In this document: positions 6,346-60,807 of the stretch, piece after piece
How positions within the stretch are numbered: the stretch's first letter is position 1
Layout: each line of letters opens with the position of its first letter
NCBI GenBank assembly: GCA_038227875.1
Contig: JBBRPR010000009.1
Location: 32,001 to 96,000 of the forward strand
Direction: 5' to 3'
Length of the DNA: 64,000 nucleotides
Origin: Planctomycetota bacterium
GTDB lineage: Bacteria; Planctomycetota; SZUA-567; H5-PLA8
The notes under the pieces: generated by a model
The model's input: only the letters and a program-made list of their open reading frames with translations
Databases searched by the model: none
What the model was told of the DNA's origin: nothing
Position numbers and translations under genes: made by a program

Positions 6346-9300
6346 CTACTTGCCCTTGAATGGAATCGGTGCGATTCCGGCCTTGCGCGCTTCGTCAATT
6401 TCGATTCGAACGAACATTGGATTGTTAGTGTTCTCTTCCATGCGTTGAGTCGCCGAATTAATGGCGTACATCAAGACTTGCGAGGACATCTCGGTCCGTA
6501 GTTGTTCCGCGCGTTCTGAATCCAATTTGGCGTAGTTCTTGTTCTTCAGATCTGTTTCACCGAGCACGGTGGTCTCGATGCAATAGCTGCGTGTTTTTGC
6601 TGCGTCCAAGTAGAAGCCAACGAAGCAATGATTTGGCGTCAGAACGAGGTAAACGTCGATTCCCATTTTCTTGAGAATCGACGCGAAGAGCACACTGCCG
6701 TCGACGCAGTTTGCCTGTTCCGACGAGAGCGAGTCTTCGAGCAGGCGCACGTGTTGACTGATGATTTTGTCGGAGCGGCCCGCGGTGCTGGTGATGCTGC
6801 TGTATTTGATTCCCCGATTTGCCAGCGCGTGCCAGACAGCTTCCACCTGCTCAAACACCTGACCATTTTGATAACCGGTGATGGACTGGATGTGATTGGT
6901 CTTCATCGCTTCGACCAGAATTTTCTGAACCTCAGGATGATCTTCGTTGACATACGCCGCGACCATCCAGCCCATATTGATGACCGGCACACGAACGTCG
7001 GTGCCGCGCATGCGAATGGGGCAATCGTTAATCGGCCTGAGCGACAGCGTCTCGTTCCGCTCTCCAATTTGGACCCCGTTTTCAAACACGGTGATCGTGA
7101 GCGTTATTGGCGTCAATTGCTTGCACTGTTGAAGCTTGTCGAATTTGTACGTAATCTTTGGCTTGATCAGATACGCTTCGCCGGCCTTGGGTAGAACTTC
7201 CTCGCACGTGCTGGGTTCGATAATTCCATCCGCTTTGAATTGAACTTTTATTTTAGCTCCGGCGGCCTGTCCTCTGACTCGTATGCCGAACATTCCTTCC
7301 ATTTCGCCCAGCTCGTGAGGATCTCCGGCCATCCGGGTTTTCTTTTTGTTGGCGGTGGCAATGATGTAGGACGGGAAAATGTTTCGATCCATTTCCAATA
7401 TGGGTTGCCATTCCAACCCGGCCGGCGTTTTTGATGTGACAGATGGATTTTCCACCCAGGCATGCTCAGCGACGGGAGGCATCTGAAGTTCGCCCTGTTT
7501 CACATTATGAGCAAATTCAAGCGGCGAGGGCTTCGCCATATGCTGCAAGTGCGCCCGAGCCCGGGCTTCTCCAATCATATCCGCCAGGAACAACGGAGCC
7601 ATCCAGGCCATGTGGCCCATGTCATTGCCTTCCACCTGTGTGGATACGATCAGTCCGGAGCCGCCATTCTTCATGGTTAACGAGACACGCGCGTCGCCTT
7701 CGGAGAGTTCGTCCATGCGACGCAGAATGAGTTCGGATCCGTCGCTGCCTTTCATGTGTTCGATGAAATCGGGATAGGATCGCAGCACGCGCAGGCATTG
7801 CTGCATCGAGCATTCAATCGCGAAGATCTGGGCTCCGCCGCATTGCGGCGTCCACGTGGATTCCGTAGTGGACGCGACCCGGCGGATGATTTCGACGTCG
7901 TTGCTGACCAGCAGAAAGTCATCGACGATGCCAAAGGACATGAAATCGGCAGCGCTCGAACTCAGCACGACGTTCTTGCCGCTATCCGTCTTTGGATTTC
8001 TGCCGTAATCGTTCCGTTGCACGGCGCCGAATTTCTCCATGGACTGTTTGGCCAGCGCCAAGGCCGCGTTGGAATCCGTGTATCGAATAAAGAATACGCT
8101 GCGTGGCTCCTTGACCGATCCCGTCGGGCTATACAAAGCCAATCCAAATGTTCCGTCCGTCAGTATTGTGTTCAAATTTGACGGCGGGATGCCATAGCCT
8201 TCGCAGAATCCACGCTTTACGGCGTCCCAGTCCTGACCCATCGTGCGACGCCCGAAATCATCAAGATTTTTCAGGCTGAACGTCATTGCCAGCATGGGTT
8301 TTCCCATGCGACCCAGCAACCCGGCGCTCGACTGTCGTCCGTCGATTTCGCTTAGGAGGTGGGACGTCTTTGCGAAGAGAACGTGCGCGGCGCTGGTGAG
8401 CTTTTCATTTGAAAAGGCAATGCCCCGGACCTCATCAATCACTTTTGGTGGTTTGATCCATGACGGCAGCATTTCAAAGGTTCGGGCCAGGCTGAAGTAC
8501 CCTGAAAACTCGCCGTTCTTCTGAAGCGGCGCAACGGCAGACTTGAAATCATCCATGTCCGACAACGGCGGGTTATCGCGCTCTTGGAGAAAGGGCTTGA
8601 TCACGCCATCGACGGCAAATCGGCTCAGAGGCAACCCGATCAGAATCCGTCCTTTGACGACAGTCATTTCGATCACATCGGGCACGCGGTATACGATCTG
8701 GCTGGTGCCGGTTTCGGTAATTTTCGCGCCCTGGGCTTCGCAAATTTTGCGAAATGTCGTCAGCGGCGTGGCTTCGTCCAACGCCCAGGCACTGATCACG
8801 ATGCCCTGAACTTCACGCTGGACCACAATTGAAATTGGATGGGATAAATCAATTCCGGCCTTGGTGTAGTCCTTGGGATTGAAAATGTCGAAACTGGTCG
8901 ATTCTTTCACCTGCGCCGCCGCTGCTTTTATTTCTTTCGCGCCTGGGCTGGAGGAGTTTTTCGCAACCTGCTCCACGAAGGAAGTCAGACTTTTGTCCGG
9001 ATGCGAAATGGAAAAGACGGCCAAGCTGTCAGACGGTGCATGAGCCGCTTCGGTCAAGGCGTCGGGTTCCGCAGCGACAACCACCGGAGGCGGCGGAGTC
9101 AGGATGCTCATGCCCACAAAGAGGGCCACCGCCAGGATGGCTACGATTCCGCCCGCAATTAGATATATTTTCAAACCGCGGCCTTCAGGCGCCGGCGATT
9201 CTGGCTCTGTGTAGACGTGCGAGGAAGGGGCAACAATGGCAGGCGCCATGGGTTCCGGCACCGCCGGTGAAGCGACGGTTCCCTGCGGAACTTCGACTGG

Positions 9301-9495
9301 AGCGGCCGCGGGTGCGGGAGCGGCGGATCGGTTCAGCGCCGCCATTTCTCCGGCCGGCGTCCACACCGCCTGGTCCGATGAGACCGAGTGAAATTTGGTG
9401 ACTTGCCCCATTTGGTAGAGGCGTCCCAATTCGTCCAGCGAGTAAGGCCCTATGATTTTTCCACGCCAGCGGACAAAGTACGGACCATTACTCAT
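6346..9495 (-). CDS. GYF_2(DUF4339)-like domain, TM, DUF3352-like region and C-terminal transglutaminase-like domain
   Basis: N-terminal 'YFVRWRGKIIGPYSLDELGRL...W'; Pro/Ala linker; TM IYLIAGGIVAILAVALFVGM; C-terminal 'ANCVDGSVLFASIL...PNHCFVG...IETT'. Confidence 0.75.
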   Translation of the reverse strand: MSNGPYFVRWRGKIIGPYSLDELGRLYQMGQVTKFHSVSSDQAVWTPAGEMAALNRSAAPAPAAAPVEVPQGTVASPAVPEPMAPAIVAPSSHVYTEPESPAPEGRGLKIYLIAGGIVAILAVALFVGMSILTPPPPVVVAAEPDALTEAAHAPSDSLAVFSISHPDKSLTSFVEQVAKNSSSPGAKEIKAAAAQVKESTSFDIFNPKDYTKAGIDLSHPISIVVQREVQGIVISAWALDEATPLTTFRKICEAQGAKITETGTSQIVYRVPDVIEMTVVKGRILIGLPLSRFAVDGVIKPFLQERDNPPLSDMDDFKSAVAPLQKNGEFSGYFSLARTFEMLPSWIKPPKVIDEVRGIAFSNEKLTSAAHVLFAKTSHLLSEIDGRQSSAGLLGRMGKPMLAMTFSLKNLDDFGRRTMGQDWDAVKRGFCEGYGIPPSNLNTILTDGTFGLALYSPTGSVKEPRSVFFIRYTDSNAALALAKQSMEKFGAVQRNDYGRNPKTDSGKNVVLSSSAADFMSFGIVDDFLLVSNDVEIIRRVASTTESTWTPQCGGAQIFAIECSMQQCLRVLRSYPDFIEHMKGSDGSELILRRMDELSEGDARVSLTMKNGGSGLIVSTQVEGNDMGHMAWMAPLFLADMIGEARARAHLQHMAKPSPLEFAHNVKQGELQMPPVAEHAWVENPSVTSKTPAGLEWQPILEMDRNIFPSYIIATANKKKTRMAGDPHELGEMEGMFGIRVRGQAAGAKIKVQFKADGIIEPSTCEEVLPKAGEAYLIKPKITYKFDKLQQCKQLTPITLTITVFENGVQIGERNETLSLRPINDCPIRMRGTDVRVPVINMGWMVAAYVNEDHPEVQKILVEAMKTNHIQSITGYQNGQVFEQVEAVWHALANRGIKYSSITSTAGRSDKIISQHVRLLEDSLSSEQANCVDGSVLFASILKKMGIDVYLVLTPNHCFVGFYLDAAKTRSYCIETTVLGETDLKNKNYAKLDSERAEQLRTEMSSQVLMYAINSATQRMEENTNNPMFVRIEIDEARKAGIAPIPFKGK

Positions 9496-9498
9496 CAG

Positions 9499-12495
9499 CT
9501 ACAATCCTTTCTCACTCTTCTTGATGTCGCCGATGTTCGTGGGCCACAGCGCTGGCACAACGGGGGAATTCTTGAGGTAGCGGTCATACAATTCCTCCGT
9601 GCCCATCTTTGCATCGACAGGCGAGAGGAGCGGCTGGCCCAGGGTAAGTAGTTCTGGATGGTACCAGACCAGAGAGCCATCACTGCCCACGGCGGCTGCA
9701 ATGCGAAAATAGGGAATCTTGTCCTGCATGACGAGAGTCCAATATTCCCGATAGCTCTGCCCGCCAATGTCGTGCGCCACGCGATTACCCTTCTGGTCGC
9801 GCATGAATACTGCACTGAGGCACAGGGGCCGCGTCAGCGCGATGCTCTCCGCTTTGACACGCGCGGGCTGTCCGGCAATGACGCTTTCGAGATGCTTTTT
9901 CAGCTTGGGCGTCAACTCGGCAAGGCGCTCTGAAATCTTTCTCAGCTCCGTCTGAATCGAGGGGTCATCGGTCATCCAGAAATTGAGCTTATCTGCGGAT
10001 AGTGCATCAATTTCCGTTTGCAGTGCGGCGGGAATGGCAAGACAACAGAATTTATCCTTATCCAGGACGGTCAGCTTCTGCAGCAACAAAACATGGACCC
10101 ATGGATTTACATCTTTATATTCCAATACGTCGCGAACGAGGGTGGGGAAGTCCTGCTCCCACTCCATTTTTTCAGCCGAGGCCTTCAACTTTTTTGCTAC
10201 TTCGCTTGCGAGTTCGCAATGCCGCGCAGGCACGATGTCGGAAACGTCACCAGGCTCCTGCGGCATAAGTGATTTGGGTTTCATGGTGTCGTCAAGGAAA
10301 GCTTTGATCTGGATTTTTCCATCACCCACATTGAGCTTGGATTCTCCATTGGCGGTGTAATAAATTTTTCCACCCATTTGAAATTGATTCATTTTTGTCA
10401 AAAGGTCGTGATTTAAAACTTTAAATAGATCCGCGAGTTCATTCTTGTAGTCCGCATGAAAAGCCGCGCGAAACCGGTGTAATTTCAATTGATCGCTGTA
10501 AGGAGAAATGGGAATTTCCGGGCGAACTCTGGCCACAGCGGCGGCATATTTTACGTACGAGGGCGATTCCTGACCGGCAACCGACTTGATCGCATCCCCG
10601 TATTCCGCGACAGCCTTGTACGAAGGGGCCATGATTTTCCACTGCTGAAGCCCCTGTGTCTCGGGGATTTCGCCGTACGATTCGGCGAGCTTGGCGATCT
10701 CTTCAGCGTAGGCATTCAAGTCGGGCATTTTCTGGCAGGCTTTGAATAGATCCTTCTGCACCTTCTCAAGAGTTGCGCGCTCCTTGTCCTCCTTGGAGAT
10801 TACTTTTTCCAAGCGATTCTTTTCGTCTACGTAGCGCTTGCGAAAGTCCTGAACTGTACGCACGAGCTCGGTTTCTTCCTTCAATCCTTTGTACGCTTCC
10901 AGGCGCAGTAGCAGATCGTCCATCTTGACAAGCCGTTCCCGTAAACTATCGGAGGTCACGGTGCTTTGAACGGCCTTGTAAGCTTCGGTCACTTCGCTCA
11001 TCAGTCCCCGGGCCGCTTTAACGTTTTCATCTTTGCGCTTAAAGCGCACGGCCTCCACGTTTGCTCTGCACTCCGCCAGGCGTGCCTTCTCTTCATCCGA
11101 GCGTACGAGTGTATTGGCGTCGGAAATCGCGGTGTCGAGCGTCGGCGAAAATGGCTCTTCCAACTTTCCCGCGAGTTCCAAATCCGTTTCGAGACGCTTC
11201 TGGCGCACCCCTTCGTCAGATTTCGCCTGGTTGAATGCCAGTACCTCGCGATGAATTCCCCCGTCGTCGAGCAGGTCCGGCGCGTCGCGTCCAATCGAGC
11301 TGATGAAGGTCTGCCCGCCTTTAAAGTCAGCGGTATCGGTATAGCGATGAATTTGCGCGGCGATTGCGCTGCGTTTCTGGCCGGCGGAAATCGCGACCAC
11401 GATCCACAGTACCAGAAGTATTCCGGCCAGTACTCCGCCACCGATGGCCGCCAGGCGCAGGTTCTTCTTCAGCGACACCGCGTTGTCGCGCGCTTTGACG
11501 TAAGACTCTGCCTTCTTTCGCAAATCGTCTGGCAACTCGCGCTTACCCAGCTTATTGAGCAGTTGCCGAACTTGCGCCGGATCTCCCGCGCTCTGAATCA
11601 GTGTGCGCAGTTCCTGGCAGTCCGCGGCGAAGGTGACCTCCTGTTCGCGCTGCGTTTTCTGCTCGGTGTGCCAGTACCGCGCATCTTCGACGACGGCGGT
11701 CTTGTCGGGCGCAATCGATACGCCCTCGTTTTTGGAAAGCTCATCCAATTCTTTAAGCGCGGAGCCGACCTGATCGTAGTCGTTGGCGGCAGTGCCGATG
11801 TTCAAGCGATTGATCAAGTTCTCCATCGCCTGATGCACGCGCGCGGATTTCAGCCTTTGGTGAATTTCTTTTGCAAACGTAATCAATTGATCGCCGGGAA
11901 TGACGAGCAGCTGTTTGTCGGTCAGTTCCTTTACGTACTCCGCCGCAATATCCTCGGTCATGCCTTCCGGCTTGCGCAGCAACTCCCCGATCTCCTTGCA
12001 GCGGGCGACTTCGAGTGCTTTCAGGTCGTCGGGCCAGTTGGGATTGGCCGGATCCAAGGCACGAATTCGGCGTACGATGGAGATTTTCTCAGCGGTGCTG
12101 CCGCCTTTGACGCTGAGGCGCCGGTAGACCTTTTGCATCGGCTCGAGTGCTTCGTGTTTTCCGTAGGCTTCCTGCAGCGTCTGGATCCGGCCGGAGTTGA
12201 TGGACGGCGGCACCGGCAAGTTGTTGGAAACGGTGTAGCTCGTCCAGACATCGAGACCTTCGAAATCGAGCGCTGCGAGAACGTCCAGCAGGGGCGGGGG
12301 CGTTTCGGCGAGATGGATGGCTTCCGAACGCAGACCGCGGTTGATGTGCTCGTAGATTTCATCGAGCCGGCGCACGGCTTCGTTGGCGATGACGGCATAA
12401 TCTGTGGCCAGAGACGAAGCCTCCGCCGGATCGACGGGGATCTTGCGGACGACGATGTCTTTGATGCGGTTAACGGTGGTTTGGTAATTGGGCAC
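9499..12495 (-). CDS. large all-helical membrane-anchored protein of the GTPase-associated operon
   Basis: 998 aa, GTG start after SD GAGGAG; helical/coiled-coil composition; central TM LAAIGGGVLAGILLVLWIVVAI. Confidence 0.8.
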   Translation of the reverse strand: MPNYQTTVNRIKDIVVRKIPVDPAEASSLATDYAVIANEAVRRLDEIYEHINRGLRSEAIHLAETPPPLLDVLAALDFEGLDVWTSYTVSNNLPVPPSINSGRIQTLQEAYGKHEALEPMQKVYRRLSVKGGSTAEKISIVRRIRALDPANPNWPDDLKALEVARCKEIGELLRKPEGMTEDIAAEYVKELTDKQLLVIPGDQLITFAKEIHQRLKSARVHQAMENLINRLNIGTAANDYDQVGSALKELDELSKNEGVSIAPDKTAVVEDARYWHTEQKTQREQEVTFAADCQELRTLIQSAGDPAQVRQLLNKLGKRELPDDLRKKAESYVKARDNAVSLKKNLRLAAIGGGVLAGILLVLWIVVAISAGQKRSAIAAQIHRYTDTADFKGGQTFISSIGRDAPDLLDDGGIHREVLAFNQAKSDEGVRQKRLETDLELAGKLEEPFSPTLDTAISDANTLVRSDEEKARLAECRANVEAVRFKRKDENVKAARGLMSEVTEAYKAVQSTVTSDSLRERLVKMDDLLLRLEAYKGLKEETELVRTVQDFRKRYVDEKNRLEKVISKEDKERATLEKVQKDLFKACQKMPDLNAYAEEIAKLAESYGEIPETQGLQQWKIMAPSYKAVAEYGDAIKSVAGQESPSYVKYAAAVARVRPEIPISPYSDQLKLHRFRAAFHADYKNELADLFKVLNHDLLTKMNQFQMGGKIYYTANGESKLNVGDGKIQIKAFLDDTMKPKSLMPQEPGDVSDIVPARHCELASEVAKKLKASAEKMEWEQDFPTLVRDVLEYKDVNPWVHVLLLQKLTVLDKDKFCCLAIPAALQTEIDALSADKLNFWMTDDPSIQTELRKISERLAELTPKLKKHLESVIAGQPARVKAESIALTRPLCLSAVFMRDQKGNRVAHDIGGQSYREYWTLVMQDKIPYFRIAAAVGSDGSLVWYHPELLTLGQPLLSPVDAKMGTEELYDRYLKNSPVVPALWPTNIGDIKKSEKGL

Positions 12496-12511
12496 GGAAA
12501 ATTAGCTCCTC

Positions 12512-15316
12512 TTATTTACCATTGAATTCAAACTGAGCGGCGTCGGAGTTAAAACTTACCATCGGAGCCATTAATTTGACTCTTTCTACGATCAACTCCT
12601 TTTCAAGTTTGTTTGTATTAATAAAACTATTTAAAGCATTTATTAACGCGACCTTCGCACATTTAAGACTATTTGTTTCATCGTTCACAAATGCGTCAAA
12701 TTTCGCTTTTTCAGCCGGGACTACATCATAGTTTTGAAATTTTAAACTGGCTTCCGCCAATTTTCTTCGATAGGATTCAAATTTGGTATTAATGTCTTTG
12801 ACTAATAAGGGCACTGAAATCTTAACTAGCTGATCATCAATTTCTTGCCGGCGCAGGTCTTTTTCTGCGACCTTTGATTTGATCTTTTCGACTTCGATAT
12901 CGATTGAATCTACAAAAACAACTTTTGCCACTAGGGACCCGTTAGCATTTATTACTCCAATCTCTATACTTGCGATATTGTCTGTTGAGTTCTTTTCGAC
13001 TACCGATGACGTTAGCGTGCCTTCGGAAATAGATAAAGACAAAACTGGCTCCGATTTTATTTCCATATCTAATCCTAAATGTTTAGATATATTTCGATTT
13101 AATGTCCAGCCGCTTTTCTTGCTAATATTTAAAGTATATCGTTTGCTGGCTCCGACTGGACTATACACTAACTCACTAGAATCCTTTGGAATTTGACATT
13201 TTCCTATTGGGCTAATCTTGCATTTTTGATACAGGCTCCATACGTTGTCTCTATATTGCAAGCCCAGTTCAAGGATGGGTCTATCAGAACCCCTTGGGGG
13301 GGATATTTTTAGAAGAAAATCGGACTTTAGAATAGACGCTACATCATTGTCGATTGAATTTTGTTTGCTTATTCGAATTCGTTCTTGGTCAAGTGAAATT
13401 GTAAGCAAGTTATTTTCGCGCTCAAGAAGCTCGTAATCTTCGGTCCCTTTTACATTTCGAAGCGTCAGTTTGTGGCCAGCCATGCCATCGCCACTTGAGA
13501 CTATTTCAGGATTTTTAAGTGGCATGTCTAAATTTAACCACTCATCGATCTTCTTGGTTTCTGTCTTTGCTTCTACTACTAACTGCGGAGTGATCTCGAC
13601 TTGCGGGAGACGGGAATTGTCGATTTTTGGAGGATTTACATTTATTGAAATGACTCCTTGTGCTGCCTCGCCATCCTCATTCTTAATGCTGTAATTAAGA
13701 ACCGTTTTTCCAACGTTAGACAAGGTGCCTTTTAGCACACCGGATTTCTCCAAGGTCAATGTGTCGGGCATCGATCCAGCGGGTTCATACGTCTGATTTG
13801 CTTCTGCGAGTGCCAAAGAATGCTTGAATGGCGTTCCGGCAATTTCTTCAAAGGCAGGGTCTGCTATTGCAATGGGCAATTTCGCGCGAATTCGAAGTTT
13901 CAACACGCGTGACGATTCTAGATTTTCTCGCGTTGCGCGGAATCTAACCTGACCATCGAAGTGCTCTAAAGGCGTACCTCTTAAGACGGCACCCTCAAGG
14001 GTTAGGCCCTTTGGGAGCTCGGATTCAACGGATATTTTTGCGAATTGGTGGTCTCCTAGTTCGATTGAACACTTATAAAACTCGCCGATTCGTCCCGCTG
14101 GAAGCATCGTTGTCGCAATTTCGGGAGAATCGACTATGCCTTTTGATATGGTTTCGCCGGGTACATCAATCTGCGGAATCGCTTTTGCTTGATTGATCAG
14201 GCAATAGATGCCCACACCCGCGCAGAGAAAGGCCGCCCCCATAATCACGAGCGGAACCCACGGTACGCCTTTACTTTTTTCAGCCACCAGAGGCGTAGCC
14301 TGAGCCTTGGACGGGCCGTGGATCGCATGTGGTACCATCGCGGGATCGATGCTCGGGGCCGCAACGGCGGCGGCTTGCACCACCACTTTTGCGGGCGTCG
14401 CCGCACTAATCACGACTTTCTTTGCAGCCGCGCCAGACTTTGCGGCCTCGGCGGGGCGGGCTGCAGCTGCGGCGGTTAAACTCGCCGGCGCGCCAGCGCG
14501 TGCCCAGCCAATCCGTGCCTCGGCGTGCGCATCGGTCAGGCTTGCTTCGCCCTTGATCACTTTCACGCCGCTTCCGGAGACATCCAGGATCCACGCCTGC
14601 GGATTGCGACGAAGATCCGTGAGCAGCGTCGAATCCGGCAGGATGCATTGAATGTTGCAAAGAGCTGTCGGCCGGTCGGTCAAGTAGGTGCTGAACGTTG
14701 TGGTCCAGCGTTTTTCGGACGGGAGCAGCGCCAGGACATCGTCGACCAGATTCAGAGTCGGCTGGCCAGCGTTGAAGATGAGTCCGATCTGGGTCGCGGG
14801 TTGATCGAAGAGACGCTGGGCGATGACGCCAGCCCAGCCCGCATCGCCTCCGGGCAACTCCTGCCACGCGGTGGCGGGTTTACTGGGACGCACCGCCGCC
14901 CGAAATTGCTTTCGGTTGGGCGGGAATTCAACGGGCTCGCCCTGCCATTGCGTTTCGAATAGACCGGGCTCCAAGGCGGCCCACGCCGGTCCGCCGGGCG
15001 GCAGATCTCCACCGTCGGCCATCGCGAAATGATGCGCGCACTTATTCGTGCGTCCGGAATAATCCGCGCCGGCGTCACCAATGCGTGAGAGCACGCGGTA
15101 GGTTCGGCCACCGGCCTGAACCTGGCTGCAGAGAATGTTTACGGGTTGCACCAGCGGCTGCTGGGCTCGCGCTTCCAGCCACCGATAGCCGCTCATACTT
15201 TCGAGCGCCTGATCCAGACTCGCGGGAAAACCCGCGGTCCGGGCAACCGTGCAGAAACCACGACTACCCGGTTTCAGCCCCTTGGGTGCAGAAGTATAGA
15301 TGAGTTCATAAATCAT
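12512..15316 (-). CDS. GTPase-associated protein 1 (GAP1-N2/GAP1-M-like), TM, putative Ig repeats and coiled coil
   Basis: 'ELIYTSAPKGLKPGSRGFCTVART', 'DYSGRTNKCAHH', 'WAGVIA', 'LLPSEKRWTTTFSTY' match recalled GAP1-N2/M motifs; He_PIG-like 'LPKGLTLEGAVLRGTP'. Confidence 0.75.
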   Translation of the reverse strand: MIYELIYTSAPKGLKPGSRGFCTVARTAGFPASLDQALESMSGYRWLEARAQQPLVQPVNILCSQVQAGGRTYRVLSRIGDAGADYSGRTNKCAHHFAMADGGDLPPGGPAWAALEPGLFETQWQGEPVEFPPNRKQFRAAVRPSKPATAWQELPGGDAGWAGVIAQRLFDQPATQIGLIFNAGQPTLNLVDDVLALLPSEKRWTTTFSTYLTDRPTALCNIQCILPDSTLLTDLRRNPQAWILDVSGSGVKVIKGEASLTDAHAEARIGWARAGAPASLTAAAAARPAEAAKSGAAAKKVVISAATPAKVVVQAAAVAAPSIDPAMVPHAIHGPSKAQATPLVAEKSKGVPWVPLVIMGAAFLCAGVGIYCLINQAKAIPQIDVPGETISKGIVDSPEIATTMLPAGRIGEFYKCSIELGDHQFAKISVESELPKGLTLEGAVLRGTPLEHFDGQVRFRATRENLESSRVLKLRIRAKLPIAIADPAFEEIAGTPFKHSLALAEANQTYEPAGSMPDTLTLEKSGVLKGTLSNVGKTVLNYSIKNEDGEAAQGVISINVNPPKIDNSRLPQVEITPQLVVEAKTETKKIDEWLNLDMPLKNPEIVSSGDGMAGHKLTLRNVKGTEDYELLERENNLLTISLDQERIRISKQNSIDNDVASILKSDFLLKISPPRGSDRPILELGLQYRDNVWSLYQKCKISPIGKCQIPKDSSELVYSPVGASKRYTLNISKKSGWTLNRNISKHLGLDMEIKSEPVLSLSISEGTLTSSVVEKNSTDNIASIEIGVINANGSLVAKVVFVDSIDIEVEKIKSKVAEKDLRRQEIDDQLVKISVPLLVKDINTKFESYRRKLAEASLKFQNYDVVPAEKAKFDAFVNDETNSLKCAKVALINALNSFINTNKLEKELIVERVKLMAPMVSFNSDAAQFEFNGK

Positions 15317-15366
15317 AATTTTTTCGTTCTAGTCTCTAAAGAACATCACGAAGGGCGCCTTAACTT

Positions 15367-17451
15367 TCAAACGCCCGGTGTTGGCGATTCCGGCTTGGGC
15401 ACGACAAACGGTTTTCCAGTCACAGGGTGATGCAGGGTGCGACCGGCATAGCGTTCAGGAATTTGCAGCAGCGCTCCGGGATTGCCCGAGCCGTCCGGAA
15501 TTTCGCAGAACAGCAATCCGCCCGCCTTGCGAACCAGGTTCGCGGACTCTGCTCCAGGCGTCTTGCTTGATCCTGCCAGGAGCATTCCCCTGCGAGCAAG
15601 GGTGTACAAAAAGGGCACGTTCACCCAGACCGGCTTGATGTCGGCAGGCCGGATGCGATTGAAAAACAATTTTCGCCGGGGCGAATTGGGCTTGAGATCT
15701 TCAGCCGTCGGGAAATTACCATCGGCATCCATCAGCGTCGGCGAGTGGCCCTGCGCACTGATCGGCATGTACGAAACATCCGCCGCAAAGTCTTCCGCGG
15801 CCGAAACCACTTCCGGGCACGTCTGCTGCAAGAGCGCGCGCAGCGAAAACGAGACGTCCTCCACGTGCCCGACATCCAGCCCCGTGACGGCATGTTTCTG
15901 GGATTGCACGTAAGGCGGCTGCCTCAAATTAATGGACAGCAGATTGCCCCAGATATCCATTTTGCCCACGATGACGATGAACAAGCCCTTGTATTTGTCC
16001 CGCTGGCTAAGCCCCAGGTAGCGGCGCACGCGGCGCGCGACTTCATTGAGGATCACATCCTGGCGCTGCAACTCCGCGCCCGGTTGAACCTGCGGGTCGG
16101 TGCTGGAAACTTTGGACCGGAAGCGCGGATCCTTGGTCGGATCAAACACGAAGAATATACAATCCGAACGCGCCATATGCTGCGTGGTGGGCGCATTCAC
16201 CTGCTCGGATCCCGGTTGAAAATGTTCTCCAGCATTGTCGTAAAGAATGATGCTGCGTCCGCTGTTTTGCGCGTTCTGGGAGAGCGGGTTGTGATCCAGC
16301 GCGCGGAGGCTGAAAATAAACGGTTTGGGGTACAGCGTGATCTGACCGTTGAAATTCACCGCGTTGTAAAACTGATCGCCTTCGCCCTGCGTCTTTTCCA
16401 GTCGCACATAAGCGTCCGGATCCTGGGGAAGAAAGAGTTTCTCTTCGTTTTCCTGCAGGCTGATGTTCATCGTCGCGTCGGCGTCGGTGAAGGCGAAGCC
16501 GAATTCGTTGTTCAACGAACGGCGCAGTTCCCAGGTCAGCGTGGCCAGCAGGTACGACTTGCCGCTCTTGGGCGCACCGATGACAGAAACAAAGAGCGGC
16601 TTAAATTCCGCGAGACACTTGGGTACTTCCAAGTGACAGTTGGGACACGCCATTTCATGGCTGGGCATGCCGCCTGGATCGATCGCCTGACCGTCCGGTG
16701 TAAAACGGGTCGGTTTGAAACGCTGCGGCGCATTCCCGCCCAGGAAGGGATCTCCAATCAAATCGGGATGGCGCGCGATGTAAAGCCCGTCTTCCAGCGG
16801 AAACACCGTCATGCAGTGCGGACAGGTACAAGTGTCCGCATCGCCGTGCTTCAACGGGCCGGGTTTATAACGCTCAACCAACGGTGCGGAGATGGGGGCG
16901 GCCAGCGGCACCGTGGATTGCGCCGGGGCGGGTGCGAAATTCGCAACATTGGCCGGCGCGGGCGCTGGCGCCGGCGCTGGCGGCGGCGCGGCCGGTCGAG
17001 CCATCATTTCTCCCAAATCCACGACGATCTCTTCGCCATTGGATGAGGACGTGGGCGCAATTGGCGATGGCATGCTGACGGCGAAGGCCGGAGTTTTCTG
17101 ATCGTTAAATGACACTGGCGGCGGTGAGGCCAGAGTTGCCATGGGCGTCAAAGGCGGCAACGGCGCACTTGGCGTCAACGGTGCTGTGGAGAGCGGCTCC
17201 GACGTATACAAGTCGCCCACATCCAGGGATAACGCCTCTCCACTGGAGGCCACAGGAAATTGCGCGAAGACATTGGCGAACGCATCGCCTGCGCGAACGA
17301 AGTTCTTTCGGTCTTTGCTGACCGGAGTCTCTATAGTGATCAACCCGGTTTTAATGCGCTGAGTAATTTTTCCTAAATCGTACGGTCCCTCGGTGGGATT
17401 GTTGGGGCGTACGATGTACCACTTATCTTCACCGCGAAGCAGCCGAAACAT
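15367..17451 (-). CDS. TRAFAC-clade (double-GTPase-2-like) GTPase with N-terminal GYF-like domain, Pro-rich linker and Zn ribbon
   Basis: 'WYIVRP..EGPYDL' GYF-like start; CPHC...CPNC; GAPKSGKS, EKTQ, YDNAGE, GKMD and ISA G-motifs. Confidence 0.8.
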   Translation of the reverse strand: MFRLLRGEDKWYIVRPNNPTEGPYDLGKITQRIKTGLITIETPVSKDRKNFVRAGDAFANVFAQFPVASSGEALSLDVGDLYTSEPLSTAPLTPSAPLPPLTPMATLASPPPVSFNDQKTPAFAVSMPSPIAPTSSSNGEEIVVDLGEMMARPAAPPPAPAPAPAPANVANFAPAPAQSTVPLAAPISAPLVERYKPGPLKHGDADTCTCPHCMTVFPLEDGLYIARHPDLIGDPFLGGNAPQRFKPTRFTPDGQAIDPGGMPSHEMACPNCHLEVPKCLAEFKPLFVSVIGAPKSGKSYLLATLTWELRRSLNNEFGFAFTDADATMNISLQENEEKLFLPQDPDAYVRLEKTQGEGDQFYNAVNFNGQITLYPKPFIFSLRALDHNPLSQNAQNSGRSIILYDNAGEHFQPGSEQVNAPTTQHMARSDCIFFVFDPTKDPRFRSKVSSTDPQVQPGAELQRQDVILNEVARRVRRYLGLSQRDKYKGLFIVIVGKMDIWGNLLSINLRQPPYVQSQKHAVTGLDVGHVEDVSFSLRALLQQTCPEVVSAAEDFAADVSYMPISAQGHSPTLMDADGNFPTAEDLKPNSPRRKLFFNRIRPADIKPVWVNVPFLYTLARRGMLLAGSSKTPGAESANLVRKAGGLLFCEIPDGSGNPGALLQIPERYAGRTLHHPVTGKPFVVPKPESPTPGV

Positions 17452-17776
17452 GGGGAAACCCTTCTAAGAGTTGTACTTACAATAAACGTAACAGTTCATT
17501 TAGAGCTACAATTTAATTCGAACGATCGCAAAATCAACGACTTTCTATGTTTCGTTGCTCATAGTGCGTTTTTGAGACTCTATTGAGCTTTTACGTGATC
17601 CCAACTTCGATTACGACACTTTTTTATAATTTGTGCGCGTTTTCTACCCGACCTCACGTGATCCACTGCTCGTGTTCAACCGCGAAGACTCTTGTGTCAG
17701 GTGGGGGACGATGGTTGAGCGGAGGCGTTAGAAACGTCTTGAATCTACAAACCGACGGGCGGAACCTGGCAGAGAG

Positions 17777-22924: not shown

Positions 22925-25732
22925 ATGTGCTGTCGTAAAAATGCGCGCCGTTTAAGTGGGAATCGATCCACTCACATCTTGTCGCTGGTGCTGGTTGCGG
23001 CCACGGTCGCTGGTTCTCTCCGCGCGGCTGATCCCTCCGAAATTACAGGCGCTCCGAACGGCGGCCTGCACATTCTCGTGGATGGCAACGAGCTCTGCGG
23101 TCTGGAACCGTTTGTCGCCGACGGAGGATGGAAATTCCTCGCACCCACGGCCGTGAATGCGCCCGCAGGTTCACCAACGCGCTTTCAGTTGAAAGTGGGC
23201 AAGGATGTTATCCCCGGCTCCGTCACTGTCGCCGAACGGGAAGGCAAGACGGAAGTGGTCTGGTCCTTCACGCCGGCCACGGACGTAGCCTTCAATGCGT
23301 TGGCGGTGGGCGCCAATTTCTCAGTGGCCACCATGGCCGGAGGAAAGTGGGACGCGGACGATCACCACGGTGCCTTTCCAGAGGTGTTTGCCGGCGCAGC
23401 GGTGCTGGGCGCTGATGTGAGTTCGTTTGAAGTGACCTACCCCGATGGCCGGACGATCAAGATGACGTTCCCGCACCCGACGCGTGTTTCCATTCAGGAC
23501 AACCGCCAATGGGGTGGGCCCTCGTTTTCCCTCCGGATCGGCAAGGGTATTGGAAAATTGGCCGCCAATGAGCACTACGAACTCGCGCTGACCCTTACGA
23601 GCCCCGCCGCGCTGCACTACCGGCCCGAGCAACCGATGATCATCACCGCCAACGACGAGTGGATTCCGATGGTGGACGAACTCGATATCGTTCCCGGCTC
23701 CGCGTTGGACCTGTCGTCCTGCGGTTTGATCGACGGTCCGTGCGGTACGAAAGGCCGGGTCATCATTACGCCTGAGGGCCATTTCGCCTACGCCAATGAT
23801 CCGGCAACACCGCGCCGTTTTTATGGCGTCAACCTGTGCTTTTCCGCTCAATATCTGCCCAAAGAGAACGCCGATCAATTGCTCGATCGCCTGGTGCGCC
23901 TGGGCTACAACGCGGTCCGCATTCATCACTATGAATTTCATCTCACCAAGACCGATTGGAAACCGGGGTTCGACTGGAGCCCCGAGCACGTAGATCAGTT
24001 GGATTACTTGATGGCCGGCTGCGCCAAGCGGGGACTGTGGCTGACCACCGATCTCTATGTCTCGCGCTTGATCACCGGCGAGCAACTGGGACTTCCCGTC
24101 GAGAAGCCGGATTTTAAAATGCTGGTGCCGGTCTACGAACCGGCCTTCAAAGACTGGCAGACATTCGCGCGCAAATTCCTCGACCGGGTCAACCCCTACA
24201 CGGGGAAGCGCATAGCCGAAGAGCCTGCGCTGGCTTGGATCTCTCTGGTCAACGAGGGCGGGCCACCCGGCGACAATGTGAAGCAATATCCCCAGTGGAA
24301 ATCCGCCTGGAACCGCTGGCTGGCCAAACGCTTCGCGGATCGAAAGTCACTCCAGGCGGCGCTGGGAGATCTGAACGACAAGGAAGATCCGGCCGCGGAA
24401 ACCGTCGCGTTCCCCGACAAGATCAAGAGCGCCTCGCCGCGCTCTCTGCTCTGCCAGGCATTTCTTGCGGACACCGAACGTGCCATGTTCGAACGCATGC
24501 GCCAGTTTCTGCGGGAGGATTTGAAGTGCCCGGCATTTCTAACGGACATTAACAGCTGCGGCCCCACTCCTGTGCCCATGCAGGCGGCGCGGGCTGCGTT
24601 TGATTATGTCGACGATCACTTCTACGTCGATCACCCGGTGTTTTTTGAAAACCAGTGGCATCTGCCCAGCCGCTGCAACAATACCAATCCCATCCGCGAA
24701 GGCGCGCCCGGTGGGTGCTCCAGTGCCAGCCTACGGGTGTGGGGCAAGCCGCTGACCATCAGTGAATACGATTATGCCGGTCCTGGCCGCTTTCGCGGAG
24801 TGGGTGGCATCCTCACCGGCGCCTTGGCGTCGCTGCAGGATTGGGACGCCATCTGGCGCTTTGCCTACTGCCACAAAGACAAGGACATCTCCACACCTTC
24901 TCCCATTGATTACTTTAATCTGGTCAGTGACCCGCTGAATCAGGCCGCCGACCGGACTGCGTTGTTGCTTTATCTGCGCCGCGACCTAACCGTGGCGCCG
25001 GGCCGGCTGGCCGTCGCGTTGCCCCTGGAAAGTTTGCGCAATCCCTCGATCCTGTCGGCGCTGAGCGGAACCGAAGCCTTCGCGTGGAACACCCGCATCG
25101 GTTGTGCGCTGCTCGATGAAAAGGCCCAAATCCCTCAGGACGCCGTCGCCATCCCGCTGGAGTCCGCCGGTGACCGTGCCGCCGTTGCCACTCGGTTGCG
25201 CGAACGTCACCTGCTCGGAGCAGGTCCGGACACGCTGATCCGCTCGGAGACTGGTGAGATCGCCTTGGATCGCAAACTCGGCGTGTTGACCATCGACACG
25301 CCGCGCGCCGCCGGAGGGTATTCCGATCCGGGTCAGAGCATCGACGCGACCAAGGCGGGAGTGCGCATCGACGGATTCACCACAGGGGCGACGGTCTTTG
25401 TCAATAGCCTGGAGCGGGTGCCGATCAAGAACGCCAAGCGGATTCTCGTCACACACCTGACTGATCTGCAGAATCAGGGCGCTCATTACGGCGAGTCCGC
25501 CCGCCAGACACTGCTGGAATGGGGCACGCTGCCCCACTTGGTCCGCGACGGAGCCGCTGTGGTACATCTGGCGATGGCCGATCCGGCCGCATACGAAGTC
25601 TGGGCGTTGTCGGCCGGCGGACGACGGCTGGAACGCATTCCCGCCACCGTTGACAATTCTGGACTGGTCTTTCCGGTTCGTGTAAAGGCGACTGATGGCG
25701 CACGCCTGTTGTATGAGGTCAGTGTTAAGTAA
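22925..25732 (+). CDS. secreted clan GH-A glycoside hydrolase (GH5-like)
   Basis: Signal peptide; 'RFYGVNL', 'GYNAVRIHH', 'VNPYTG', 'ISLVNE' (acid/base), 'DDHFYVDHP', 'KPLTISEY' (nucleophile). Confidence 0.75.
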   Translation: MCCRKNARRLSGNRSTHILSLVLVAATVAGSLRAADPSEITGAPNGGLHILVDGNELCGLEPFVADGGWKFLAPTAVNAPAGSPTRFQLKVGKDVIPGSVTVAEREGKTEVVWSFTPATDVAFNALAVGANFSVATMAGGKWDADDHHGAFPEVFAGAAVLGADVSSFEVTYPDGRTIKMTFPHPTRVSIQDNRQWGGPSFSLRIGKGIGKLAANEHYELALTLTSPAALHYRPEQPMIITANDEWIPMVDELDIVPGSALDLSSCGLIDGPCGTKGRVIITPEGHFAYANDPATPRRFYGVNLCFSAQYLPKENADQLLDRLVRLGYNAVRIHHYEFHLTKTDWKPGFDWSPEHVDQLDYLMAGCAKRGLWLTTDLYVSRLITGEQLGLPVEKPDFKMLVPVYEPAFKDWQTFARKFLDRVNPYTGKRIAEEPALAWISLVNEGGPPGDNVKQYPQWKSAWNRWLAKRFADRKSLQAALGDLNDKEDPAAETVAFPDKIKSASPRSLLCQAFLADTERAMFERMRQFLREDLKCPAFLTDINSCGPTPVPMQAARAAFDYVDDHFYVDHPVFFENQWHLPSRCNNTNPIREGAPGGCSSASLRVWGKPLTISEYDYAGPGRFRGVGGILTGALASLQDWDAIWRFAYCHKDKDISTPSPIDYFNLVSDPLNQAADRTALLLYLRRDLTVAPGRLAVALPLESLRNPSILSALSGTEAFAWNTRIGCALLDEKAQIPQDAVAIPLESAGDRAAVATRLRERHLLGAGPDTLIRSETGEIALDRKLGVLTIDTPRAAGGYSDPGQSIDATKAGVRIDGFTTGATVFVNSLERVPIKNAKRILVTHLTDLQNQGAHYGESARQTLLEWGTLPHLVRDGAAVVHLAMADPAAYEVWALSAGGRRLERIPATVDNSGLVFPVRVKATDGARLLYEVSVK

Positions 25733-29691: not shown

Positions 29692-29737
29692 CGCCGCGAC
29701 CCTGTGTCCTTACACGACACTAGATAAGGAGCCAAAC

Positions 29738-56153: not shown

Positions 56154-56193
56154 ACGGGTCTCGCTACTTTTCGTTACAGATGCATCCGGTGCT

Positions 56194-56228
56194 CATTCGA
56201 CATTCGACATTCGTCACTCGACATTCAA
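56194..56228. repeat. heptamer tandem repeat (CATTCGA x5, degenerate)
   Basis: cattcga cattcga cattcgt cactcga cattcaa. Confidence 0.75.
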
Positions 56229-56229
56229 C

Positions 56230-60805: not shown

Positions 60806-60807
60806 CG

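Follow-up and report, generated by a model that had tools for sequence, protein, structure and literature searches.

A GTPase–GAP1 cassette with three predicted membrane-crossing partners in a planctomycete genome

The genes of the locus

Four minus-strand genes, encoding proteins of 694, 934, 998 and 1049 aa and separated by gaps of 50, 16 and 3 nt, lie together in the window (the whole 64,000-nucleotide stretch analysed). An earlier note on this DNA had described four co-oriented genes with these gaps, and the ORF coordinates, gaps, and domain and TM calls confirmed that description overall. It had also counted three membrane-crossing partners with large C-terminal parts. This agrees with hydropathy, by which P0002, P0003 and P0004 are each single-pass, with one strong TM segment, and P0001 has none.

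17452..17776, no strand: upstream intergenic region, relatively AT-rich, presumed promoter region
15367..17451, minus strand: P0001, 694 aa, start ATG
12512..15316, minus strand: P0002 (GAP1), 934 aa, start ATG
9499..12495, minus strand: P0003 (P3), 998 aa, start GTG
6346..9495, minus strand: P0004, 1049 aa, start ATG

The AT-rich promoter that had been proposed upstream of the operon stands only in its composition (GC 0.449, against 0.594 for the window). A sigma-70 scan of the region found sites no more numerous than in shuffles, and the promoter label therefore stays presumptive.

P0001 is predicted to be soluble and consists of a GYF domain, a proline-rich linker, a single zinc ribbon (ZnR), a DO-GTPase2 domain and a C-terminal tail.

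17272..17430, minus strand: GYF-like domain, residues about 8-60 (GYF_2, 18.1 bits, E 0.0024)
16837..17241, minus strand: proline/alanine-rich linker, residues 71-205 (proline content)
16627..16836, minus strand: zinc ribbon, C210, C213, C269 and C272 (cysteine columns in alignments A4 and A8)
15577..16599, minus strand: GTPase core, residues 285-625 (motifs and DO-GTPase2)

In Pfam, the DO-GTPase2 match reaches 31.3 bits (cut-off 27), and the GYF_2 match stays under its cut-off of 25.8. The proline content of the linker rises to 37% per 30 residues near residue 152. The P-loop (G292-K298), the Walker B motif (DNAGE, 405–409) and the KxD motif (K497, D499) show, like the zinc-ribbon cysteines, little or no variation in alignments of 11 and of 44 GTPases. 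DO-GTPase2 matches 39 of these 44 relatives and GYF_2 five (E<=0.001); proline-rich stretches are sparse, occurring in 5/44 GTPases and 6/28 GAP1 linkers.

P0002 joins an N2+M module, an Ala-rich linker and one TM segment to a 556-aa ectodomain.

14603..15316, minus strand: GAP1-N2 (residues 1-132) and GAP1-M (154-238), cytoplasmic constant module (Pfam)
14195..14251, minus strand: TM segment, residues 356-374 (Kyte-Doolittle 2.42 over 19 residues)
12515..14182, minus strand: ectodomain, residues 379-934, low GC, with an Ig-like He_PIG match at 505-558

The Pfam scores are 84.4 bits for GAP1-N2, 24.8 for GAP1-M (cut-off 24) and 23.6 for He_PIG, slightly under its cut-off of 24. With DO-GTPase2, GAP1-N2 and GAP1-M all above their cut-offs, the GTPase/GAP1 assignment made earlier is upheld. 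GAP1-N2 occurs once in the source genome.

Judged from its sequence, P0003 is the conserved third core component and represents a family of proteins, about 1000 aa long, that had no name before and is here called P3. It matched no Pfam family at E<0.01, no NCBIfam model and no PADLOC family, and its own family comprises 3176 representative clusters, nearly all of 950–1010 aa.

11461..12495, minus strand: cytoplasmic N-terminal domain, residues 1-345, best-conserved part of P3
11389..11445, minus strand: TM segment, residues 351-369 (Kyte-Doolittle 2.69)
9502..11379, minus strand: periplasmic part, residues 373-998, probable coiled coil, then globular end

The N-terminal domain is alike in 377/378 pairs, with G54, R125, R142 and E162 invariant, and the relatives have a TM segment in the equivalent position. 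Residues about 390–600 probably form a coiled coil; positions about 410–600 gave only weak PDB profile matches, of coiled-coil type. In the globular end, W840 is invariant across the alignments.

P0004 comprises a GYF domain, a Pro/Ala-rich stretch, a TM segment, a DUF3352-like region and a C-terminal Cys/His module.

9334..9480, minus strand: GYF domain, residues 6-54 (GYF_2, 25.5 bits, E 1.1e-5)
9112..9168, minus strand: TM segment, residues 110-128 (Kyte-Doolittle 2.61)
7438..9096, minus strand: DUF3352-like region, residues 134-686, presumed periplasmic (DUF3352, weak, E 0.025)
6349..7437, minus strand: C-terminal module, residues 687-1049, with conserved Cys930, Asp932 and His956

The GYF_2 score falls marginally short of the Pfam cut-off of 25.8, and the domain resembles those of GYF proteins occupying the equivalent position in other loci. 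While the GYF domain and TM segment of the architecture read earlier from P0004 were recovered, its DUF3352-like and transglutaminase-like parts gave weak matches, the latter to Transglut_core at E 0.03, below the Pfam cut-off. Atlas feature matches of the DUF3352-like region to DUF3352, DUF2138 and DUF4836 clusters, at 0.92, serve as a lead only. Residues 747–1047 align with positions 28–315 of the NCBIfam model antiphage_ProA at E 5e-28, with a score of 97 bits, where the cut-off is 1500 and the model has 1903 positions. The module also resembles the N-terminus of plasmid-borne DUF4011/DUF3320 helicases (22–25% identity, tblastn, alignment A7), shares 37–38% identity with two other proteins, and is present in a 397-aa Bacteroides protein and a TPR protein.

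Conserved core, variable ectodomain and neighbours

The genes encoding the GTPase, GAP1 and P3 follow one another in this order in 42 of the 44 related loci having at least 6.5 kb downstream, far above chance, which bears out the co-conservation expected in the earlier note. These loci belong to four PVC phyla, Planctomycetota, Lentisphaerota, Verrucomicrobiota and Kiritimatiellota, and in genomes with a full-length P3 the GAP1-N2 gene lies immediately upstream of the P3 gene. The best explanation of the four genes is that they form one cassette, a PVC-clade form of the DO-GTPase2/GAP1-N2 system. That they are chance neighbours or decaying remnants is scarcely credible: P0003 belongs to no named family and the GAP1 ectodomain, odd in composition, stands without relatives, but the four frames are open over 694–1049 codons, including 556 codons in DNA of 36–48% GC, the catalytic motifs are intact, and order and orientation are kept in the same 42 loci. 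The stretch appears in no RNA run, which counts neither way on expression.

Our comparisons revealed that GAP1 is constant on the inside and hypervariable on the outside. GAP1-N2 and GAP1-M both match all 44 relatives, and in pairwise blastp the inner module is alike in 378/378 pairs against 7/378 for the ectodomain. One outward-facing part of the system thus varies from genome to genome in planctomycetes and their relatives. In locus L083, two GAP1 genes share an exact 830-nt head and carry unrelated ectodomains; in locus L046, three additional genes resemble only the TM and ectodomain part of GAP1. Adhesion-type Pfam domains occur in just 2/44 ectodomains, and a Cadherin domain in 1/44 GAP1 proteins. 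The window's own ectodomain had no partner among 27 others (blastp), and a word-based search of 5.8 billion proteins found no relatives. It is compositionally foreign, with GC3 values of 0.44, 0.37 and 0.36 against 0.68 in the N-terminal part, and its GC falls to 0.36–0.48, in agreement with the lower GC noted earlier for parts of the operon. The GC3 drop is the second largest among 28 systems; a lower ectodomain GC3 is nevertheless a general trend (24/28 systems, median 0.11), so a foreign graft is not the sole reading.

Downstream of the core, the fourth gene is GYF-led in 20 of 21 planctomycete loci, and its product varies between TM-rich, trypsin and T2SSE forms (GYF-T2SSE in L076 and L096; T2SSE in L047) and the Cys/His module of the window. 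The usual planctomycete sequel is this GYF protein followed by a MotA/ExbB gene and two paralogous partners, X and Y (13/21 loci; MotA_ExbB, X and Y are present in 13, 12 and 11, respectively). X and Y are single-pass proteins with an invariant Asp in the TM segment; homology to ExbD was unsupported (hhalign probability below 1%). A PilM_2-like gene and a partner follow the core in 6/7 non-planctomycete loci. Because most planctomycete relatives continue in this way, the four-gene cassette is probably incomplete as drawn in the earlier note, with its MotA unit elsewhere in the source genome. There, a MotA trio lies on contig C2 behind a paralogue of the P3 N-terminal domain and TM segment, encoded directly before MotA/ExbB; of 63 P3 proteins compared with this paralogue, the one in the window matched it best. 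When the Y family was sought in five genomes with a core locus without Y, it was absent from four, and the fifth gave a short weak match.

The energy transducers TolA and TonB cross the membrane once, continue in the periplasm as an extended helical stretch and finish in a globular domain, and P3 appears to be built alike. The position of the P3 paralogue just ahead of MotA/ExbB extends the parallel; P3 differs in its 345-aa cytoplasmic domain, missing from TolA and TonB, and has no sequence match to them in Pfam or PDB profiles.

The system is accessory and patchily distributed, not invariant core genome: of 200 other genomes sampled from the phylum, only 10 (about 5%) have a full-length P3. 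The GTPase tree tracks the phylum labels (5 changes, where shuffling gave a mean of 14.1), so vertical descent with loss fits better than free mobility of a defence system. The flanks in the window are housekeeping genes, an EF-G paralogue and an aldo/keto reductase, with LpxC, LptF/G and others further off; neither a tRNA near the cassette nor a defence-island signal in the flanking genes was found. PADLOC models gave zero matches to the four window proteins, and 12 of 128 proteins in the upstream flanks of 26 loci matched, mostly via generic kinase or repeat domains.

Relation to described systems

A literature search found no experimental work on any DO-GTPase/GAP1 system, in agreement with the earlier note; the prediction by Kaur et al. 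2020 (eLife, PMC7159879) and two passing mentions were all that proved relevant. The consulted part of that paper describes, by prediction alone, a DO-GTPase that carries a zinc ribbon at its N-terminus and a glutamate in Walker B, a GAP1 with N2+M encoded directly downstream and often fused to C-terminal TM segments and extracellular domains such as cadherins, and planctomycete GYF proteins whose fusion partners are trypsin or TM-rich regions. The present system and its relatives share these features. Since membrane-anchored GAP1 and planctomycete GYF partners are thus already in PMC7159879, the 'membrane-spanning variant' of the earlier note is not a departure. Compared with that account, the FNIII-repeat component is missing and the single-pass P3 of about 1000 aa fills the third place, the GTPase has one ZnR instead of the usual two and itself bears a GYF domain, and the fourth protein, in place of trypsin, combines a DUF3352-like region with a ProA-N-like Cys/His module. 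The MotA/ExbB+X+Y, PilM-like and T2SSE neighbours have 0 occurrences in the main text of PMC7159879, which also seems to contain neither the P3 core gene nor the hypervariability of the GAP1 ectodomains.

The Agl-Glt machinery of Myxococcus, as treated in the consulted part of Attia et al. 2024 (PMC11135422), likewise employs membrane proteins that are bitopic and carry ZnR/GYF modules on the cytoplasmic side (GltJ being a ZnR-linker-GYF switch), GYF binding to a proline-rich sequence (GltJ/AglZ), a small GTPase with a GAP governing assembly, and a channel of the TolQ/MotA type that has two TolR-like partners; the paper also reports the GYF-then-ZnR order in PVC bacteria. The likeness is one of architecture only: the GTPase is a DO-GTPase2 rather than MglA, GAP1 and MglB are unrelated, Pfam found no TonB-C domain, and X and Y are not detectably homologues of ExbD/TolR.

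Zorya, in the consulted part of bioRxiv 10.1101/2023.12.18.572097, is an anti-phage system pairing the MotAB-like ZorAB unit with soluble effectors. Common to both are a MotA/ExbB-family membrane unit within a multi-gene accessory system and possible envelope sensing. The GTPase, GAP1, P3 and GYF partners differ, the MotA unit is optional here, and PADLOC matched none of the four window proteins. Prometheus is a single-protein defence, ProA (NCBIfam NF058533; PMC13700489, in the part consulted), whose N-terminal module is shared with the C-terminus of P0004. P0004 is devoid of the helicase, nuclease, DUF4011 and DUF3320 parts, and its module, placed after a TM segment, presumably lies in the periplasm, whereas in ProA-type helicases it is cytoplasmic.

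Possible working of the system

The function we favour, at just short of an even chance, is an envelope surveillance switch of the conflict or defence kind, and we rank it above a GTPase-regulated envelope machine. The interpretation in the earlier note is supported in part; its trans-envelope sensing complex gated by a single GTPase stays conjectural, and the flanks gave no defence-island signal.

The machine, a rather unlikely alternative, would follow the design of Agl-Glt, Tol or T2SS and do a cell-biological job, be it movement over surfaces, adhesion, secretion/uptake or the remodelling of the envelope. Its GTPase/GAP1 pair would control where and when P3 and the GYF scaffolds engage a power unit, namely a MotA/ExbB-type motor, a PilM/GspL-like protein or a PilB/GspE-type ATPase. 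The conserved power-unit neighbours speak for it, as do the constant length and full-length conservation of P3, the phylum-following GTPase tree, housekeeping flanks that include LPS genes, the missing defence-island signal, and a vocabulary common with Myxococcus gliding (ZnR, GYF, proline-rich partner, GTPase with GAP, TolQ/R-type motor; PMC11135422, in the part consulted). On the other hand, so few sampled genomes carry the system that its job is not one common to all cells, and relatives can do without the MotA trio. The fourth gene brings trypsin in some loci and TM-rich or Cys/His modules in others, and non-homologous ectodomains, extra ectodomain genes and a duplicated head typify recognition under diversifying pressure. 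The differences from Agl-Glt in GTPase, TonB-C and X/Y also count against it.

Several of these observations sit awkwardly with surveillance: the housekeeping flanks without defence-island context and the blank PADLOC result, the phylum-following tree, the rarity of proline-rich stretches, and the uniform P3, which with its MotA/ExbB, PilM-like and T2SSE partners suits a structural machine equally. The same holds for a Cys/His module that scores below the Transglut_core cut-off and is cytoplasmic in ProA-type helicases.

Self/non-self or kin recognition in aggregate-forming PVC bacteria, with an ectodomain that binds an identical or matching one on a neighbouring cell and elicits a GTPase response, seems improbable. 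It would account for the extreme ectodomain variability atop a constant signalling head, the Ig-like He_PIG match and the single Cadherin domain, and for the strong association of GAP1-N2 systems with a multicellular or aggregating habit (Table 1 of PMC7159879, in the part consulted). An ectodomain behind a single cytoplasmic-membrane TM segment is, however, periplasmic in a diderm, so contact with a neighbour would require it to traverse the outer membrane. The locus has no conserved outer-membrane or export component, and adhesion-type domains are as rare as given above.

For the surveillance switch, we infer the following course. The soluble ZnR-GTPase would act at the cytoplasmic membrane, on its inward side, together with GAP1, P3 and the GYF-anchored protein, each of them bitopic with the N-terminus inside and the C-terminus outside. 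The GAP1 ectodomain would recognise a periplasmic or surface target, such as a phage, predator or foreign cell, and the signal would pass through the membrane to the N2/M module, setting the nucleotide state of the GTPase. This state may then be relayed through P3 and GYF/proline-rich contacts to a periplasmic, peptidase-like output and, in most relatives, also to a MotA/ExbB-type proton-driven unit, which in the source genome would be the one on contig C2. The constant GAP1 head with its hypervariable ectodomain, the low GC3 of the window's own ectodomain and its lack of relatives, the duplicated head in L083 and the extra ectodomain genes in L046 form a receptor-like pattern, and the accessory distribution (10/200) and variable GYF-led fourth gene favour the same reading. 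For the GYF/proline-rich contacts, the proline-rich stretch of P0001 may correspond to the GltJ/AglZ precedent in the consulted part of PMC11135422.

Organization and membrane topology of the cassette

The four co-oriented genes reported in the earlier note, with intergenic gaps of 50, 16 and 3 nt, were recovered here as these ORFs:

15367-17451, minus strand: P0001, the GTPase, ORF of 694 aa
12512-15316, minus strand: P0002, the GAP1 protein, ORF of 934 aa
9499-12495, minus strand: P0003 (P3), ORF of 998 aa with a GTG start
6346-9495, minus strand: P0004, the GYF-TM-DUF3352-like-Cys/His protein, ORF of 1049 aa

Pfam searches upheld the GTPase and GAP1 assignments of the earlier note, with DO-GTPase2 at 31.3 bits in P0001 (cut-off 27) and, in P0002, encoded 50 nt downstream of the GTPase gene, GAP1-N2 at 84.4 bits and GAP1-M at 24.8 bits (cut-off 24). 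The GYF and transglutaminase-like assignments did not reach the same standard: GYF_2 was sub-threshold in P0001 (E 0.0024) and P0004 (25.5 bits, cut-off 25.8), as were Transglut_core in P0004 (15 bits, E 0.03, cut-off 23) and He_PIG in P0002 (23.6 bits, cut-off 24). P0004 also gave a weak DUF3352 match (E 0.025), and P0003 gave no Pfam match. Sequence and profile searches of the PDB returned nothing for the GTPase or P0004, and coiled-coil noise only for P3. Scanning for promoters and terminators yielded sites no more frequent than in shuffled sequence. A search for RNA runs containing the stretch listed none. Four DNA sequencing runs yielded contigs of only 150-500 nt; in three of the runs the GAP1 ectodomain was uncovered, from which nothing follows.

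At the N-terminus of P0001, a GYF domain and a zinc ribbon (ZnR) are separated by a proline-rich linker, with 37% Pro over 30 residues. Its one four-Cys ribbon (C210, C213, C269, C272) is conserved, and a second ribbon was not seen in this protein. In alignments with 11 and with 44 relatives, the ZnR, P-loop and KxD motif are invariant or nearly so, and the Walker B motif DNAGE (405-409) is invariant in both. The N-termini of the GTPases vary, carrying FHA in 14 and GYF_2 in 5 of 44 proteins. A six-frame DO-GTPase2 search of the source genome found nothing over the genome-wide threshold, although the P0001 protein itself passes the Pfam cut-off.

Hydropathy places a single TM segment in each of P0002, P0003 and P0004 and none in P0001, in agreement with the proposal that the three partners cross the membrane. 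In P0002, GAP1-M is followed by an Ala-rich linker, the TM segment and the ectodomain. Pfam, which presumably includes a GAP1-C model, gave no match of this kind at E<=1. From what is generally known of bitopic proteins, an N-in, C-out topology is expected, because the N-terminal parts, namely GAP1-N2/M in P0002, a 345-aa domain in P0003 and GYF in P0004, have no signal peptide, and because the GYF domain of GltJ is cytoplasmic. Such a topology would leave 556, 626 and 916 residues of P0002, P0003 and P0004 outside.

Kaur et al. 2020 (PMC7159879), who defined DO-GTPases, GAP1-N1/N2, GAP1-M and GAP1-C, describe GAP1-N2 systems as acting near the membrane, with GAP1 often fused to a C-terminal TM and sometimes to cadherin, and with an FNIII-repeat protein as the type-specific third component. 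As far as described there, the cassette resembles this type in its DO-GTPase with the Walker B glutamate and N-terminal ZnR, in the GAP1 protein with N2 and M encoded just downstream, and in a variable effector-like component, which is a GYF protein in planctomycetes and P0004 here. It departs from the same description in having one ribbon in P0001, where two are usual, and in lacking an FNIII-repeat protein, whose place is taken by P3; fn3 had no Pfam match in the four cassette proteins or in 53+85 neighbour proteins. The earlier note knew of no experimental characterization of a DO-GTPase/GAP1 system, and our literature search likewise found none; a 2026 preprint names DO-GTPases in passing among immune GTPases. 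No system in PADLOC-DB 2.0 matched the four proteins, the only match being mad8 at E 0.056 over the P-loop.

A further parallel comes from Myxococcus. According to Attia et al. 2024 (PMC11135422), the GYF domain of GltJ binds a proline-rich sequence of AglZ, the ZnR-linker-GYF region of GltJ is a switch operating with MglA and MglB, and GYF followed by ZnR is the arrangement of PVC bacteria. P0001 has exactly this order, with the proline-rich linker in between. A general rule pairing GYF with proline-rich sequence was not supported, such stretches occurring in only five of the 44 GTPases and in six of the 28 GAP1 linkers. Unlike in the Agl-Glt system, an MglA-type GTPase, MglB (roadblock) and TonB-C are absent from the Pfam matches of the cassette.

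A conserved core with a hypervariable outer part

A homologous-protein search with P0003 reached only one relative. Among 200 other sampled genomes of the phylum, 12 encode relatives, which are proteins of about 1000 aa in 10. GAP1-N2 is present in all ten of these genomes, directly upstream on the same strand wherever contigs permit, and BLASTP of the fetched loci gave the order GTPase, GAP1, P3, GYF protein. A profile search for full-length P3 again returned these ten genomes alone out of 200. The system is hence accessory, and the invariant core-genome status considered in the earlier note does not apply. The source genome has one copy of GAP1-N2.

The P3 alignment contains no stretch of sufficient conservation to find related loci. 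A scan with the GTPase alignment as query, using one genome per species, gave more than 577 confirmed loci, the best 80 of which come from Planctomycetota, Lentisphaerota, Verrucomicrobiota and Kiritimatiellota. Of the listed loci, 44 extend 6.5 kb or more downstream of the GTPase; GAP1 was found in 42 of these and P3 in 42 with the order kept, so the genes that the earlier note grouped as one system are indeed co-conserved. The loci of the scan are mostly from metagenome bins, some with doubtful taxon labels, and their ORFs were called by a longest-ORF rule that makes the starts approximate. Cultured carriers exist among them (Botrimarina colliarenosi Pla108, Allorhodopirellula solitaria CA85 and Oligosphaera ethanolica DSM 24202), and the question of function is therefore testable. 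Two loci, L097 and L064, lie on contigs titled Chitinophaga (Bacteroidota); L097 is probably mis-binned, because in the GTPase tree, which does not include L064, it is near-identical to L080 from a Planctomycetota bin.

P3 is an abundant family. A profile of 12 proteins matched 3176 representative clusters at E<=0.001 and 1864 at 1e-30, and the best 150 of the 3176 are nearly all 950-1010 aa long and aligned end to end. The Atlas matches are unnamed planctomycete clusters only, and no relatives were found in Pfam, NCBIfam, PADLOC or the PDB. The periplasmic C-terminal portion of P3, at about residues 587-992, also occurs alone, in a single-pass protein of 583-702 aa (L014 7986-10067 in genome G066, and likewise in G154). 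These two genomes belong to the same family and have no GAP1-N2, and there the lone part adjoins a CHASE8 histidine kinase, a YfiR-like protein and a TonB-dependent receptor.

The conservation of the core differs strongly between its inner and outer parts. The comparison used 28 systems in which GAP1 carries both a TM and an ectodomain of 250 aa or more, with pairs scored as alike at BLASTP E<1e-5. The inner 250 residues of GAP1 are alike in 378 of 378 pairs and the ectodomains in 7 of 378; for P3, the corresponding counts are 377 for the inner and 176 for the outer part. A Pfam domain was found outside in only 2 of 44 GAP1 proteins, He_PIG in P0002 and Cadherin once, and a word-based search of 5.8 billion proteins found no relative of the window ectodomain.

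The composition of the ectodomain is also distinctive. The earlier note had described parts of the operon as lower in GC, and this was borne out in P0002, where the third-codon-position GC (GC3) is 0.44, 0.37 and 0.36 along the ectodomain, against 0.68 in N2+M and 0.71-0.78 in the flanking genes. As a control, 24 of the 28 systems show a lower GC3 in the ectodomain than in the inner part, with a median difference of 0.11; the difference of 0.30 in the window is the second largest of the 28, and GC3 declines gradually there from around codon 340. Replacement of the ectodomain by foreign DNA is the simplest reading, others being possible.

Two other loci may illustrate how ectodomain exchange might work. 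In L083, the GTPase gene has a GAP1 gene on either side. The two encode the same N2+M head but ectodomains unrelated to each other; they share an exact 830-nt direct repeat (7043-7872 and 11299-12128), past which identity falls to chance. The repeat may have arisen by recent duplication or conversion, or it may be an artefact of assembly. In L046 (14251-20063), three genes of 525, 522 and 863 aa stand between GAP1 and P3, and their products match only the TM and ectodomain of that locus's GAP1, at 57, 28 and 31% identity. They lack N2+M, and the locus was accordingly rejected as a case of four tandem GAP1 paralogues.

The fourth gene and the downstream partners

The fourth gene exists in several versions, in which GYF is joined to TM-rich regions (DUF4190, RDD, TM2), to trypsin or to T2SSE. 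Among the fourth-gene proteins of the loci scanned, P0004 alone combines GYF with a region resembling DUF3352 and a C-terminal module of 360 aa. Residues 747-1047 of P0004 match positions 28-315 of the 1903-position NCBIfam model 'anti-phage protein ProA' (E 5e-28). The match covers those positions only and scores 97.1 bits against a cut-off of 1500, and P0004 was rejected as a full-length ProA, with its helicase, DNA2-like nuclease, DUF4011 and DUF3320. The single-protein defence Prometheus consists of ProA, according to earlier work cited in PMC13700489. The module shares 37-38% identity with a TPR protein and one further protein, 34% with a 397-aa Bacteroides protein and 22-25% with the N-terminal part of DUF4011/DUF3320 helicases. 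Cys930, Asp932 and His956 are invariant in a three-sequence alignment and kept in two further relatives; the Transglut_core match is weak.

The neighbours were classified by clustering the ORFs of 91 loci, followed by Pfam scans, with planctomycete and non-planctomycete loci split by record titles. In the 21 planctomycete loci with at least 4 kb past P3, the GYF protein comes next in 20, MotA/ExbB is present in 13, and two single-pass proteins encoded after it, X and Y, in 12 and 11. In non-planctomycete loci, a PilM_2-like protein of about 610 aa and a partner of about 290 aa come next in 6 of 7. Clustering placed the MotA/ExbB family in 22 loci, with Pfam matches in the neighbour genes, and the T2SSE ATPase occurs in three, two of them GYF fusions. 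In the minimal systems L076 and L096, GAP1 (about 370 aa) and P3 (about 380 aa) both stop right behind the TM, have no outer parts and are followed by a GYF-T2SSE (PilB/GspE-type) ATPase. MotA, ExbB, PilM and Lentisphaer are absent from the main text and two supplementary files of Kaur et al. 2020 (PMC7159879), whose large source-data PDF may list them.

X and Y are paralogous (hhalign 99.2%), each built from a basic N-terminus, a TM in which one Asp is invariant, a coiled coil and a C-terminal domain. They belong to no Pfam family, and none of the 20+15 members matched ExbD. Homology to ExbD was rejected, since hhalign against six ExbD proteins of the source genome gave a probability below 1%; only the invariant Asp in the N-terminal TM is shared with an ExbD/TolR/MotB-type partner. 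Kinship between P3 and Y was also rejected, the alignment being confined to TM segments. The trio of MotA/ExbB, X and Y is optional: Y was undetected in four of five genomes without the trio at the core locus, with a single short, weak match in the fifth.

In the source genome, the trio lies on another contig, C2, directly behind a gene for a 394-aa protein paralogous to the N-terminal domain and TM of P3. This four-gene module occupies L015 8022-11676, with neither GTPase nor GAP1 nearby, and its trio comprises MotA/ExbB (280 aa; MotA_ExbB at 39 bits, 9232-10071), X (234 aa) and Y (294 aa). Of 63 P3 proteins, the 394-aa paralogue matches P0003 of the window best, and we infer that the C2 locus is likely a partner of the window cassette. 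Like the 5:2 motors ExbB/ExbD, TolQ/TolR and MotA/MotB, the trio has a MotA/ExbB channel protein; unlike them, it has no recognizable ExbD/TolR/MotB-type partner.

We tentatively suggest that the GTPase-GAP1-P3 core could be a PVC-wide adaptor, joining a hypervariable, cassette-exchanged periplasmic receptor (the GAP1 ectodomain) to one of several interchangeable power units, which would be the MotA/ExbB-type proton motor together with its two novel partners, the PilM/GspL-like protein or the PilB/GspE-type ATPase. If so, it would represent a previously undescribed class of GTPase-gated trans-envelope machines, serving immunity or another contact-dependent task.

Genomic context and possible roles

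DO-GTPase/GAP1 systems belong to the large conflict systems that have been predicted by computation, with no function demonstrated in the literature. The PVC form offers handles on this question: a three-gene core with the new, abundant family P3, constant inner and hypervariable outer modules, and a recurring link to proton- or ATP-driven envelope power units. We give a role in envelope surveillance or defence a little under an even chance. Family membership, a prevalence of about 5%, a hypervariable outer part on a constant signalling head, indications that cassettes are exchanged, a fourth gene that is swapped and carries peptidase-type modules, and a module common to a validated defence protein all count towards a conflict or recognition role. 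Kin or contact recognition appears improbable, and other readings share the remaining weight.

The genomic context points elsewhere. The flanks in the window are of a housekeeping kind (an EF-G paralogue and an aldo/keto reductase, and further along LpxC, an LpxA-like gene, LptF/G, a heptosyltransferase and a tRNA synthetase), with no tRNA gene found there. Only 12 of 128 flank proteins from 26 loci matched PADLOC, mostly through kinase, HEAT and ankyrin domains. The GTPase tree (44 rows, quick search) follows phylum labels, with 5 changes against a shuffled mean of 14.1, the window GTPase forming a long branch beside a Lentisphaerota-type clade. Same-family genomes are too distant for an empty-site or synteny comparison. 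These flanks and this tree, together with the envelope-machine power units found among the partner genes, argue against a conflict role and for a GTPase-regulated envelope machine with a cell-biological task, which we regard as possible but on the unlikely side.

The conflict and machine roles are not exclusive, as a MotA-type unit reportedly serves immunity in Zorya. Were the defence reading true, this would be the second MotA-type unit recruited into immunity, after Zorya, and a small-GTPase switch would be wired to periplasmic sensing; were the machine reading true, the cassette would encode an envelope apparatus not known before, in a group of bacteria with a little-understood cell biology.

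Several other loci were observed in passing. Upstream of the system in L042 (4179-9672), a PADLOC mad3/mad8 protein (E 1.5e-23) stands beside a Ser/Thr kinase matching mad6/PD-T4-6 models, and these genes may form a MADS-like cluster. In the window, a 935-aa ORF just upstream of LpxC (22925-25732, plus strand) has no Pfam match at E<=0.001, and three consecutive genes at 28100-30250 (plus strand) encode cyclophilin-type peptidyl-prolyl isomerases. On the minus strand at 49179-59565, a 2324-aa vWA and DUF4159 protein adjoins a 1111-aa TPR protein. At 59696-61814, an MbnB/TglH/ChrH-like gene (RiPP precursor modification) lies near a small treble-clef zinc-finger protein, and this region may be a peptide-modification locus.
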